From: Eledone cirrhosa
Taxonomy: Eukaryota
Length of the DNA: 64,000 bases
Direction: 5' to 3'
Assembly (NCBI GenBank): GCA_964016885.1
Contig: OZ024746.1
Span: forward strand, 55,738,001-55,802,000
Shown: positions 1,433 through 63,550 of the stretch, in pieces
Layout of the letters: each line of letters begins with the position of its first letter
How positions within the stretch are numbered: the first letter of the stretch is position 1
Made by a program: the position numbers and the translations under genes
Notes under the pieces: generated by a model
Seen by the model: the letters and a program-made list of their open reading frames with translations, nothing else
Database searches by the model: none
What the model was told of the DNA's origin: nothing

Positions 1433-2067
1433 TGGTGACAAATACAGTGAATGAGGAAGAGGATATATATATATATATATATATAATTTCTGAATTTGTT
1501 TAGCATAATTCTTTATCTGAAAACGTGTGTTGAAACCGATATTGTTATGCTTTGGGAGGGTCATGTTGCCAATAAGAAATACACGCACCAGTTGCTTTCA
1601 CTTCAATTTATTATAAATTAAATTCACAAATTTAGGAATTTATAAATTTCCGGTTGATTTGTTGGTTCCACAACCAGATGATTGTTCATATATTGTCAAA
1701 GTTCTTTCGTCACACATTCTGTGATCTCTTCAGTGACTGCGGATTCTTTTCTTTGTTTTTTGTGCCTCTCCTTTGTTCTATCCTACGCCATCTTGTTTTT
1801 GTTGTGTGCTTAGTTTGCGCATGTGTTACATCCTGGTGTCAGGAACTCTACTTTTTATAATCCTTCCGATATGTCCTTCGACCTACGACGAATCCACGAC
1901 ACGATTTTAGCTTTTAACAAACGCACGCAATTGCCGTCGCAGGTCGATGAACAAACAGCAGCACAATTTAGTATAGCTAGATCTAAACTTAGAAATATTA
2001 TAGAACAGTATAGCAAGAAGCAAAATAGAATGGAGGACCAGCAACTGGGAGAAAATCTGCAAATGGA

Positions 2068-4210
2068 TTGCATAAGCTCATGCAGCGCTCGCGTAATGGA
2101 GAAATTGCATGCTTTCCAACAGACAAGTCTGGCAGAATGTCGGTTGACAGTCTGTCAAACTACATCCAGGCAATCCAACCCCACATCACTAACACAAGAG
2201 AAGTAACACCACAAGAGCATGAGGATAGGGAAAAAACCCTCAATGCCCATATGATGATGTGGACAAATATAATGCAGCCCAACAAAAGGACTGCCAACAA
2301 CTTCTAGGCCTGGAACAATGACGTGCCAGCGTTGTATGGGCTTCGAAAAGACCATAAAACGAGCAGTAACCCTGTCACAGGCACACCAACTCTGCCAGTC
2401 TGTGGAGCTAATATTGCTAGTAACTACGGATTTTCCTACTTCCTCTCCTTGATCATACACCCCATCATTGAAATGTCCCCAGATATATGTGACAGCACGG
2501 AGGGCCTCCTCAGCAGAATCATCGAGAGTAACCGATCTAGGGACCTAACAAACTGCATAATAGGTAGTATGGATGTTGTGTCCCTATATCCATCTATTGA
2601 CGTGGTTTTGCTGTGGAGAAATGCGTAGAAATGATCAGTGAGAGCAATGTTGAATTCCGTGGGATTGATACCAGTGAGCTGGGACGCCTACTTAATCTTA
2701 CCTATAGTAATGATTATCTAGATACATATGGCCTTAGCAACCTGTGCCCTACAAGACCAGCAAGAGGCAGACCACCTACCATTACCTCAATGGCCAAGAA
2801 AACCCACACAGATAGATGGAACGCGTGGACCAGAGCCATACGGACCCCCGAAAACCACGATGAACTAAAGAAAATGATTGCACATGCGGTGGGGGCCAGT
2901 ATAAAATTAACCCTTAATGAACATATGTTCAAATTTAATGTAAAAACATATGCCCAAGAGGAGGAAGCAGCCATTGGTGTTAGCATTGCAGGTGACATAG
3001 CTAACCTATTCATGGTATGGTGGAACAATATACTTAAACTTAAACTTAAAGAACAATTAGAAGACAGCAATCTCTTAACCCTGATAATGTACTCCCGCTA
3101 CGTTGATGATATAAAGATCGTAGTAAAAACAGCCCGACTAGAGAACAGTCAGGAATTAGAGAAAAACACCATGGAAAGCATCCAGCAAATAGTTAACTCC
3201 ATCCACCAGAGTATTAGAGTTACTATAGACTACCCAACTAAATACCCCTACCATCGATTACCTGTACTAGACACATCCCTCGGGTGAGATACCATTAATA
3301 ACAAAACATCCTACATTCCCACTATGCCAAACCCATGACTTCCAAATATCTGATCCACCGAAACCCAGCTGTTTCGGACCATACCAAATTCAACATACTG
3401 ATTGCGGATTTGGTACGGGTGATGAGAAACGTTTCCCGCATGTGCAGCCCCAAAGAACTAGAGAGAGACACATACAACACTTCATCCACCGTATGCAGTT
3501 CTCTGGTTACAATCAGAGAGATAAAATCAGAGTATATAGAGGAGCCAGAACCAAATGGGAAAAAATGGTGAATAATGATACAAATGGGACCTGCCCCTTG
3601 TATAGGAGCACATTTTGGAAAAGAATAGGAAGAACTAGAAATAAGGTTAATAGAATAAACTCATGGTATGATAGCAATAATTACCAGAGTGTAATGGTCA
3701 TCGATACAACCCCTAGAGTTGAATTAGCTTACAAATTTACAGGGGCCCTATATAAACATAAACTCAATATTAAGATAGTAGAAAGACCAGGTACCTCCAT
3801 AAAAACACTTATTAGCAATACATACCTTTTTCAAAGACCTCCCTGTATAGATAAGAAATGTATAATCTGTAAACTAAGCCCCCATATTAACTGGAAAACT
3901 AGAAATGTAGTATATAGCATAAGATGTACTGAAGGACAATGTAGAGATAAAAATATAGTGTACATAGGTGAGACAGCTCGTAGTGTAGGGGAACGAATAA
4001 ATGAACACTGGCGAGAGCTTCAAGATAGTAAATAATAATCTGTACTCCACCAACATGCTAAAATAGAACATAAGGGTAAATTAGAGGACATAGAAATAAA
4101 CATAGAATCTACACACAGAAAAGACGCAATGTTTAGACAAATTACAGAAGCAATAAACATAAGTGAACTCCAACCAAAATTAAATAGAAAACATGAATGG
4201 AATAGCAACA
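2068..4210 (+). pseudogene. PLE RT + GIY-YIG endonuclease ORF broken by stops and frameshifts
   Basis: Successive ORF pieces 2068-2307, 2323-2628, 2613-3287, 3335-3571 and 3442-4035 carry collinear PLE motifs. Confidence 0.9.
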
Positions 4211-4419
4211 TCACAACTTACAATTAAGAACAAAATGAAAACACACACACACATAGAACAAACAACCAACCAGTAACATGTAAATAAACAAATAAATAAA
4301 CAAATATAAACACACACAGACACCCGGATATAGCACATGCGCAAACTAAGCACACAACAAAAATAAGATGGCGTAGGACAGAACAAAGGAGAGGCACAAA
4401 AACAAAGAAAATAATCCCA

Positions 4420-4462
4420 GTCACTGAAGAGGTCACATAATGTGTGACGAAAGAACTTTGAC
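4420..4462 (+). ncRNA. Minimal type I hammerhead-like motif in PLE 3' end (mirror copy 1695-1737, minus strand)
   Basis: GUCA-CUGAAGA-G-GUCACA uaaug UGUGAC-GAAA-G aa C-UU-UGAC: stems I and II pair, stem III is very short. Confidence 0.6.
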
Positions 4463-4605
4463 AATATATGAACAATCGTCTGGTTGTGGAACCAAGCAAC
4501 CAACCGGAAATTTATAAATTCCTAAATTTATAAATTCAATTTATAATAAATTGAAGTGAAAGCAACTGGTGCGTGTGTTTCTTATTGGCAACATAACCCT
4601 CCCAA

Positions 4606-61740: not shown

Positions 61741-62144
61741 TATTAAAACATATAGACGTATATATATATATCATGTCGTTTTAAGTAGGAATGCCATCTA
61801 CATGTCTTTTGACATACATATATGCACATCGATATGCCGAAGAATATGTTCATACATAGATCTGAATCATTTAAATAAAAAATAGATTTATTGTCCATCG
61901 CACTTGAAGTGCATCTTACGCAAACAATTGTCGCGAATACAGCTTTATAGAGGTATATTGTTTCATAAATAAATGCACAATTCATTTCCACCTTACAATA
62001 TTAGTGACATCAAAAATCCTCCCACAGAGCACACACACACACACATATATATATATATATATATATATATATATATATATATATATATATATATATATAT
62101 ATATATATATATATATATATATATATATATATATATATATATAT

Positions 62145-62575
62145 ATAAGTATGTATACGTACATACTTATATGTATACAGACGTACAGTAGTATATATAT
62201 ATATATATACATACATGCACACATATATATATATGTACGTATGGATTCACCGAACATTTATTATAATGCTCGGTGTGTTTGTAAACAAACATCCCGAATT
62301 AAGCCGTACAGTGTCTAGCAACCATCGTTGCTCATTTGTTCAACACTGACAAATGAACGCTGTACTAGTTTCAAGCTTATTAACTATCGTCAGCAACGTA
62401 TACCTTCCTGCCAGATGATGAAACGTCTGAAAGTATATACTTTCCTTATGCATATTAACGGTTCAGCAGCCTAATTTGCATATCGAGTGAGTTAATCGGC
62501 CGGGGTACCGAAAACGATAAACGGAAAAAATGAAACGAAATTTCATTTCTCACTCTTAGTACGGCTATTAATTAA
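62145..62575 (-). mobile_element. Single ~430 bp HHR monomer (same family as 57923-59835)
   Basis: HHR at 62358-62398 (-). Confidence 0.88.
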
Positions 62576-62774
62576 ATCGCTGCTTTCACCCTTAACAGAA
62601 TTTCTGAAACTGGGTTTCAGAAGATCCCGTTAAGGGTGAAAGCAGCGATTATTTGCTTAAATTTTAATCTGTTATTTTAATAAATATTTTATCTACAATT
62701 CTTATATATTTGATATATATTTATCCTTATCGAGCCCTCTTGGATTTTAGTCTTCAAATTTATTATTATTACTA
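62576..62774 (+). mobile_element. Family-B PLE terminus as a small fold-back with tail
   Basis: aatcgctgctttcacccttaac..tctgaaac / gtttcagaagatcccgttaagggtgaaagcagcgatt, then a tail ending at (TA)n. Confidence 0.75.
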
Positions 62775-62849
62775 TATATATATATATATATATATATATA
62801 TATATATATATATATATATATATATATATATATATATATATATATATAT

Positions 62850-63550
62850 ATACATACATATATGTACGTATGGGTTTACCGAACATTTATTATAATGCTC
62901 GGTTTGTTTGTAAATTAAGCCGTACAGGGTGGTTCGGCAACTATCGTTGCCCTTTTGTTCAACACTGACAAAGGAACGATGAACTAGTTTCAAGCTTATT
63001 AGCTATCATCAGCACCGTATACCTTCCTGTCAGATGATTGAAGGTTTGACAGTATATACTTTCCACATGCATATTAATGGCTGAGAAGCCTAATTTGCAT
63101 ATCGAGTGAGTTACTCGGCTGGGCGTACCGAAAACGATAAATGGAAAAAATGAAATTTCATTGTTCACTCCTAGTACGGCTGATACTTAAATATACGTAT
63201 GTATACGTACATACTTTCAAACGGTCATCTGACAGGAAGGTATACGGTGCTGATGATAGCTAATAAGATTGAAACTAGTTCATCGTTCCTTTGTCAGTGT
63301 TGAACAAAAGGGCAAATATGGTTGCCGAACACTGTACGGCTTAATACGGGCTGTTTGTTTACAAACAAACAGAGCATTATAATACATGTTCGGTAAACCC
63401 ATACGTACAAATATGTATGTGTGCATGTATGTATATATATACATACCACTGTACGTCTGTATACATATATGTATGTACGTATACATACTTATATTTAAGT
63501 ATCAGCCGTACTAGGAGCGAGAAATGAAATTTCATTTTTTTTCCATTTAT
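62850..63550. mobile_element. Head-to-head pair of ~420 bp-family HHR monomers (variant subfamily)
   Basis: HHRs at 62977-63017 (-) and 63245-63285 (+): CGGUG-CUGAUGA..GAAA-CUAG-UU-CAUCG; inversion at ~63215. Confidence 0.88.

Follow-up and report, generated by a model that had tools for sequence, protein, structure and literature searches.

Two-armed Penelope-like and retrozyme insertions with paired A and B ends at (TA)n in Eledone cirrhosa

The window analysed here is a 64-kb stretch of the 3.0-Gb assembly of Eledone cirrhosa (GCA_964016885.1, contig OZ024746.1, positions 55,738,001 to 55,802,000; GC 35%, (TA)n 7.9%). It contains ten insertions built of two arms joined 5′ to 5′, which belong to Penelope-like elements (PLEs), to tandem hammerhead retrozymes and to small hammerhead-bearing families. 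In the families sampled across the genome, one arm as a rule ends at one fixed site and the other at a second, called A and B in what follows, which together bound the PLE ‘tail’.

Two-armed insertions in the window

Self-BLAST and the mapping of natural reference copies gave inverted pairs at all ten intervals for which a sequence-only reading had claimed an antisense left arm and a sense right arm. In eight insertions a search for relaxed hammerhead cores places those of the left arm on the minus strand and those of the right arm on the plus strand (1733-/4424+; 24697-/24730+; 29071-/29284+; 29616-/29662+; 38390-/41483+; 53066-/53553+,54020+; 58165-,58567-/58678+,59102+,59528+; 63012-/63250+). 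The other two (10116-10638 and 37802-38252) have a core only in the right arm (10336+ and 38021+), the left arm being antisense by homology and too short for a core. That most insertions adjoin (TA)n is borne out: 16 of the 20 outer ends of the earlier intervals lie within 10 nt of a run of at least four TA units, against a background of 5.8%, the share of non-TA window bases found no more than 12 nt from such a run. A descriptor of the type I hammerhead has 15 matches in the window and 0-1 in each of five shuffles; matches at 10923, 30527 and 51819 stand alone, outside the ten insertions.

In each of the ten, mapping of reference copies shows that one arm only carries an unpaired 3′ extension, whole or partial. 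Omission of this tail from one arm had made three of the earlier intervals too short: the true left arm of 28940-29414 starts at 28829, at (TA)n, and the right arms of 24574-24860 and 29540-29737 extend to ~24916 and ~29792. Two small two-armed insertions had been overlooked (57769-57909 and 62575-62775), and single-armed insertions are also present, e.g. at 54520-56050 and 44147-44306.

The Neptune-like PLE-1 has a tail-bearing left arm (1486..1840, minus strand) with its B end at 1486 and a hammerhead core at 1733, and a right arm (1842..4605, plus) with a frameshifted reverse transcriptase (RT) and GIY-YIG frame and a core at 4424; the right arm ends 13 nt before site A, joined to an antisense copy of PLE-2 (4604-6891). 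Terminal repeats of PLE-1b occur twice. The first has an A-side left arm with a decayed end (10112..10280, minus) and a right arm (10281..10638, plus) with a hammerhead-like core at 10336 and a tail running to the B end at (TA)n; the older one has a left arm with a partial tail (37802..37969, minus) and a right arm with its A end at (TA)n (37973..38250, plus). PLE-3 consists of a left arm (38290..40660, minus) with its A end at (TA)n, a hammerhead at 38390 and a broken C-terminal frame at 39607-40674, and of a right arm (40661..41670, plus), interrupted at ~40778-40963, with a hammerhead at 41483 and a ~87-nt tail to the B end at (TA)n. The two overlooked insertions are mini copies of the Hydra-like PLE-2: 57769..57909 has B on the left and A on the right, and 62575..62775 has its B end on the right and a shortened left arm joined to a 426-family arm (62143-62577).

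Retrozymes occur with three unit lengths. The 467-bp retrozyme has a left arm of 1.24 units (52807..53387, minus) with its A end, unit position 426, at (TA)n, and a right arm of 2.07 units (53387..54353, plus) with its B end, unit position 33, at (TA)n; the arms meet at 53387 with 1-nt microhomology. Within the right arm lies a minimal type I hammerhead (53546..53590, plus) with a 7-bp stem I, a 5-bp stem II, a palindromic stem III and a predicted cut after 53583. The first 426-bp retrozyme has a left arm with intact cores and an A end at (TA)n (57923..58596, minus) and a right arm of 2.9 units with a B end at (TA)n (58600..59835, plus), in which three of three cores read GGAA for GAAA; in the second, the left arm (62850..63214, minus) ends at an internal TA-rich stretch, short of A, and the right arm (63225..63549, plus) has its B end at (TA)n. 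The 531-bp retrozyme has its B end at (TA)n on the left (28829..29185, minus), 112 nt beyond the earlier interval, and its A end at (TA)n on the right (29183..29412, plus). The short hammerhead family F24574 has its A end at (TA)n in the left arm (24575..24705, minus), and its tail-bearing right arm (24712..24916, plus) stops before B, joined to a sense PLE-1b body with its own B end (26832). In the small hammerhead-core family F29540 the left arm has a tail-less end at (TA)n (29540..29633, minus), and the tail-bearing right arm (29641..29792, plus) is followed by (TC)n(TA)n; this tail is also found in the flank of locus L155.

The further claim that no arrangement is tail-to-tail stands within a family, where none was found in the window, and fails between families: six such meetings, always of different families and across shared or lost (TA)n, lie at 4605, 29414/29540, 38252/38290, 54352/54520, 57909/57923 and 62775/62850.

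Families and the pairing of their ends

Protein searches identified two autonomous families with open frames, PLE-1 and PLE-2. The frames, of 1257 and 713 codons from stop to stop, contain RT motifs and a YIG motif and so appear to have the single-frame organization, RT with C-terminal GIY-YIG, of endonuclease-positive (EN+) PLEs. Pfam gave no relevant match on the two full frames; a window fragment matches GIY-YIG weakly (E 4e-4, below the curated cut-off), and part of the Atlas neighbours of PLE-2 carry GIY-YIG or RVT_1. The pseudo-long terminal repeats (pLTRs) are partial tandem or inverted, as in EN+ PLEs, with partial tandems at L242, L247 and L249, and the tail is the start of the next copy, mapping to the start of the reference. 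Motifs compared with Craig 2021 suggest a Neptune-like PLE-1 and a Hydra-like PLE-2: read by eye, the L241 frame has both Neptune motifs (a CX2-5CxxC linker and CCHH in the endonuclease); the L246 frame has a CxCX5C linker, DKT and RWR, for the RWK-like motif, and lacks CCHH, as in the Hydra clade, which also targets (TA)n. The PLE-1 open frame at L241:2221-5991 has long asparagine- and threonine-rich inserts; the N-rich ones resemble inserts described for rotifer Penelopes (PMC3846280). PLE-1 and PLE-3 have a hammerhead core in the pLTR. No canonical core was found in PLE-2 copies, only a one-letter variant; PLE-2 has a ~1-kb 3′ region with a 140-bp duplication (window 4758-5023; L249), and Hydra-clade elements have been reported with a hammerhead core.

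The 467-, 426- and 531-bp units are tandem and non-coding, each with a type I hammerhead, as in non-LTR retrozymes; the 531-bp fold is atypical in its long stem II. Microsatellite-driven microRNA matches dominate an Rfam scan of the window, and the only relevant matches are to HH9 at the three 467-bp cores, below the gathering score (37.7 bits at 53546..53590, gathering score 52). A search for RNA data sets containing the 467-bp unit listed none; contigs of uncertain kind join its end to its start, a picture that tandem DNA also gives. Head-to-head hairpins with hammerhead-like cores from families absent from the window were seen at L143:1170-1410 and at L244_45:954-1109 and 14419-14530.

The genome-wide count of orientation, flanks and junctions that had been proposed was run on samples of six families: the three tandem hammerhead retrozymes, F24574, PLE-1 and PLE-2. 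By hand tally these gave 121 A+B insertions, one A+A and no B+B. Samples anchored on B are blind to A+A and those anchored on A are blind to B+B; the DNA and protein searches are end-neutral.

An end-blind genome search with one 467-bp unit found arrays in which a run of minus copies gives way to a run of plus copies. The window insertion and 19 fetched ones comprised 17 A+B, one two-armed with an odd end and two single-armed, with site A at unit position 426-431 and site B at 29-33. The pattern of B followed by TA has 2156 genome matches, and its reversed control none; the A pattern, which is subfamily-specific, has 671 raw overlapping matches. Anchored samples were taken in order, namely 41 B ends, 40 of them distinct, counted from the start of C1, and 20 A-anchored stretches. 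The former gave 29 A+B, no B+B, four two-armed with an odd or unreached other end, four single-armed, one flank snap-back (L084) and two longer than the stretch fetched; the latter gave 13 A+B, one A+A (L093), two odd, three single and one cross-family join (L110). The family thus totals 59 A+B, one A+A and no B+B. In the 53 loci classed by script, unit positions 426, 428 and 431 account for the clustered A ends and position 33 for the B ends, each end running into TA; six further loci were classed outside the script. Two pairs apparent from coordinates alone, L064 as B+B and L094/L095 as a 10-kb A+B, were rejected as separate insertions.

The other families follow suit, with neither A+A nor B+B in the loci sampled. 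The 426-bp unit, whose B end is followed by TA at 2901 genome matches, gave 14 A+B (two with a slightly eroded A), three odd and 13 single or unresolved among its first 30 loci; the 531-bp unit gave 15 A+B, one odd and nine single among 25 distinct loci; F24574 gave 13 A+B, three with a cut-off tail arm and 14 single among 30. PLE-1 gave eight A+B among 26 loci, the others hitting locus edges, being truncated or single, and PLE-2 gave 12 among 24. Identical insertions with identical flanks at L082/L083 and L207/L208, 18 kb and 340 kb apart, were counted once and reflect segmental duplication or assembly duplication. Tails measure ~72, 58, 117, 105, 61 and 88 nt in the six families. No structure common to all tails was found: measured against crude shuffles, the tails of the three retrozymes form strong hairpins (z -3.1 to -4.1), and the six other tails do not.

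The sequence-only reading had called the hairpins MITE-like (MITE, miniature inverted-repeat transposable element). They do look like hairpins, and duplications of 8-10 nt are known for hAT and Mutator elements too. Terminal inverted repeats of a MITE or DNA transposon would be identical and fixed at both ends, and here one end is A and the other B. Arm lengths span three orders of magnitude (7 nt to 8.7 kb), inner junctions fall at random, arms diverge with age and the autonomous insertions contain RT and GIY-YIG frames. Assembly fold-back would be an artefactual source of such hairpins; contigs of run X1, which may be the assembly's own sample, end in TA repeats exactly at A (53817) and B (53419). 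These hairpins are not MITEs, and we consider a transposon or artefact origin next to negligible in probability.

Junctions, haplotypes and the making of two arms

Of 67 junctions in the 467-bp family 59 were resolved, 20 of them with extra bases that are partly artefacts of old subfamilies. Microhomology of at least 2 nt is present at 19 of the 39 junctions lacking extra bases, against 18% for random joins. In a loose test restricted to informative loci, those with impure (TA)n, an impure word occurs on both sides in 16 of 26 loci, against 140 of 650 swapped pairs (21.5%); by eye the minimal flank duplication is 8-12 nt. None of the sampled two-armed insertions has (TA)n at its inner junction.

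Such pairs might also be assembled after insertion, by recombination, gene conversion or unequal crossover, or arise when one microsatellite is hit twice independently. In the window a given (TA)n has often been targeted serially, arrays have grown locally at L041, L055 and 57923-59835, and local amplification is the model put forward in bioRxiv 10.64898/2026.07.22.740005. Such processes predict B+B, A+A, tail-to-tail arrangements and (TA)n between arms, against the 121 A+B among 122 and the inner junctions free of (TA)n; arm-private variants also persist, so conversion between arms is not strong. As a source of the paired arms we judge them very improbable.

Another route is self-priming or fold-back: a strand primed at the target, or templated by an antisense strand, would bend back and serve as its own template, and the second arm would be cut to length by the endonuclease at the other site. 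Arkhipova 2013 (PMC3846280) put forward self-priming with an antisense strand as template, and Craig 2021 speaks of ‘EN-mediated resolution’. Fold-back predicts identical haplotypes in the two arms, and 4 of 59 junctions fall at the identical unit position, forming exact palindromes, where 0.13 were expected; exact or near-palindromic junctions are found at L042, L074, L105 and L077, and that of L096 lies at a natural hairpin. In L084:205-790 what adjoins a 467-family B arm is an inverted copy, 36 nt long, of the flank to the right across (TA)n; the second target end would seem to have snapped back on the self-complementary repeat. Fold-back is unable to make non-nested arms or arms without common sequence. 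Neither arm is nested in the other at 10 of the 59 loci, and the arms have no common sequence at L051 and L057 of the 467-bp family, at L140, at three PLE-2 loci (L232, L246, L248) and at 6 of 16 two-armed F24574 loci. Single-unit variants of one 467-bp arm are not mirrored in the other, and either arm may be the longer (A in 20 loci, B in 39). These non-overlapping arms already refute fold-back as the general route, which we hold to be improbable overall; it may act in a minority of insertions.

Arm lengths are weakly correlated (rho 0.39 in all 59 loci; 0.30, p 0.055, in the 42 C1 loci). Inner ends of B arms lie near the predicted ribozyme cut at 9 of 59 loci (unit 185-210, a window picked after looking at the data; p 0.005), those of A arms at 1 of 59, and about ten B arms halt 6-28 nt past site A; we take both patterns as leads only. 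At L110:1965-3996 a single interval bounded by (TA)n combines a B arm from the 426 family, a short piece of 426 in sense orientation and an A arm from the 467 family, the outcome of a template switch between families or of a nested insertion plus deletion. Similar cross-family intervals, A on the left and B on the right, lie in the window at 24575-26832 and 62143-62775.

The arms of young 467-bp insertions are uniform in their per-unit variants, each insertion with its own haplotype. Of 55 two-armed loci one was dropped for misalignment and three for little overlap; in the remaining 51 the distance between arms is 0.40%, against 3.7% to other loci, and 21 pairs are identical. Fewer than two diagnostic differences separate the arms of 48 of the 51 (mean 0.35, against 11.6), and 16 of the 51 have an arm-common variant absent from every other sampled locus. 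None of 11 531-bp loci has two or more such differences. Retrozyme arrays extend outward in both directions, with as many as 19+15 units that are nearly identical. A single internal substitution occurs in the 18.7+14.9 units of L037/38, and none in the 6.9+12.9 units of L068. Genomic evidence of this kind suggests that some retrozyme arrays were born long and did not only grow later.

We favour, as the probable account, a programmed, twin form of target-primed reverse transcription in which one RNA, tandem or circular, is the template and the two products are then joined. Orientation, (TA)n flanks, A+B pairing, the shared haplotype, short flank duplications and variable junctions with microhomology are read from the DNA; cutting, priming, circles, strand displacement and joining are what we infer. 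The PLE protein would make a staggered cut in (TA)n that leaves 3′ overhangs of ~8-12 nt, and both freed 3′ ends would prime reverse transcription on the same RNA, one at site A and one at site B. Copying from the top-strand 3′ end would yield the antisense left arm and from the bottom-strand 3′ end the sense right arm. Each complementary DNA (cDNA) would extend a random distance, on retrozyme circles for many turns, which would need strand displacement; the two cDNA 3′ ends would then be joined by 0-8 nt of microhomology and each would prime the other's second strand. Failure of one end would leave a single-armed copy. Several PLE clades would use this common mechanism, and retrozymes would borrow it in trans. 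The short flank duplication argues for 3′ overhangs, and non-nested arms require two priming events, which by the A+B rule start at different sites of the RNA. Arms of one haplotype point to a single template, and 19 plus 15 near-identical hammerhead units are most simply written from a circle. The sequence-only reading had likewise supposed that both cut ends prime reverse transcription and that the cDNAs are joined, a view favoured by the flank duplications, the junction microhomology and the arms that are not copies of each other; the two ends are not equivalent, one being A and the other B.

The nearest competitor has both ends priming, each on an RNA of its own, with an asymmetric pair of proteins holding the two RNAs, which would mostly stem from one source locus or burst. 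It accounts for A+B and flank duplications, for long arms without polymerases displacing each other, for loci with discordant arms and for the cross-family join of L110. Many haplotypes coexist among the youngest 467-bp arrays, and yet arms match within a locus; private variants are shared in the 16 loci noted above, and the two arms halt at the same nucleotide at the four palindromic junctions, many more than expected. We think two RNAs unlikely, if clearly the most credible of the alternatives.

Several points weigh against twin priming on one RNA. The footprints fit both target ends on one RNA, but DNA sequence by itself does not tell one molecule from two RNAs of a common source. In 3 of 51 467-bp and 4 of 10 426-bp loci the arms have at least two diagnostic differences, for which a single template gives no explanation. 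The exact palindromes are as fold-back predicts, and copying of one arm from the other would formally fit 49 of the 59 467-bp loci. Each of the three units of the 58600-59835 arm carries the private core change, and at L041 and L055 the units follow period-3 and period-4 patterns, so some arrays grew after insertion by local duplication. For the anole PLE, PMC11167929 reports start sites alike for both strands and uncut RNA as the main substrate. No sequence link tying any retrozyme to PLE-1 or PLE-2 was found, and the idea of one machine for all insertions is too strong, since Neptune-like and Hydra-like open-frame families coexist and the retrozymes are linked to neither.

A wider proposal, which we advance more tentatively and hold to be possible, is that, by default, EN+ PLEs integrate through twin priming: one ribonucleoprotein would engage two fixed tail-bounding sites of a single RNA to prime from both target ends, two polymerases would roll round retrozyme circles and write tens of units bidirectionally per event, and the joined cDNAs would prime second strands. 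If true, it accounts for the tail, the inverted pLTR and the retrozyme arrays by one mechanism. Two-ended copying of the same RNA would explain a long-puzzling mode of PLE insertion, and twin priming with joined cDNAs offers a simple answer to second-strand synthesis.

Published systems and neighbouring sequence

Twin priming of L1, reportedly credited to Ostertag and Kazazian in 2001, is occasional and uses an internal, variable second site. Here, by contrast, the second site is fixed, most insertions of young families are two-armed and each of the arms may traverse the same sequence many times. The systems are alike in that both 3′ ends of a break prime on two regions of one RNA and give 5′-to-5′ arms, as PMC2246262 describes for L1.

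That the arrangement had not been described at such scale is true only in part. According to PMC3846280 head-to-head is the most frequent PLE arrangement, with a tail optional on one inverted pLTR and duplications of 8-10 bp; Craig 2021 (PMC8557442) describes an inverted truncated copy, a tail often at one end and a (TA)n bias, and leaves tandem and inverted insertion and microsatellite targeting as an open problem. As these papers describe them, EN+ PLEs with an inverted pLTR share with our insertions the head-to-head 5′-truncated copy, the one-end tail, the 8-10 bp duplications and the (TA)n bias, as well as palindromic junctions and N-rich inserts. They differ in that the one-tail state is here counted and nearly obligate (121/122), tails are 58-117 nt rather than 30-40, arms may have no common sequence and non-coding tandem arrays obey the rule as well; these papers prefer self-priming or resolution by the endonuclease. 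The anole Poseidon PLE PAc is reported to cut and extend both strands of AT-rich DNA in vitro, with two RT start sites that bound the tail and a predicted dimer (Frangieh 2024, PMC11167929); two tail-bounding sites are likewise read from sequence here. Unlike here, start sites are reported to be alike for both strands with PAc, and the main text does not treat cDNA joining or inverted insertions.

Metazoan non-LTR retrozymes are described as circular and PLE-derived; a circular RNA template and PLE mobilisation have been proposed for them and integration left open (Cervera 2020, PMC7229834; Li 2026, bioRxiv 10.64898/2026.07.22.740005). Their tandem low-GC units, each with a type I hammerhead, resemble ours, and neither text applies the words ‘inverted’ and ‘orientation’ to retrozyme arrays; here the units measure 426-531 bp, and most arrays run in two directions and have A and B ends of PLE type. 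We found no literature on PLE twin priming, paired A/B ends or bidirectional retrozyme arrays, in a search whose scope stopped short of older Penelope papers, figures and supplements, which may bear on novelty. The geometry and TA targeting are thus known in outline, and the pairing rule, the shared template, the non-nested arms and the bidirectional retrozyme arrays appear to be new.

Young insertions number in the thousands in this genome, enough to yield a clear-cut rule, an A end paired with a B end in a single haplotype, which separates published ideas and makes the PLE integration mechanism directly testable in the existing in vitro system. The genomic evidence also indicates that retrozyme arrays can be full-length products of a PLE enzyme and not solely the outcome of unequal crossover.

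Elsewhere in the window, a near-complete long interspersed nuclear element (16454-22004) encodes ORF1, an apurinic-type endonuclease (E 1e-14) and RT (E 5e-29), and is split by a stop and a frameshift. Fragments at 43298-43618 and ~56050-57300 resemble a Helitron-type helicase by motif and may be pieces of one.

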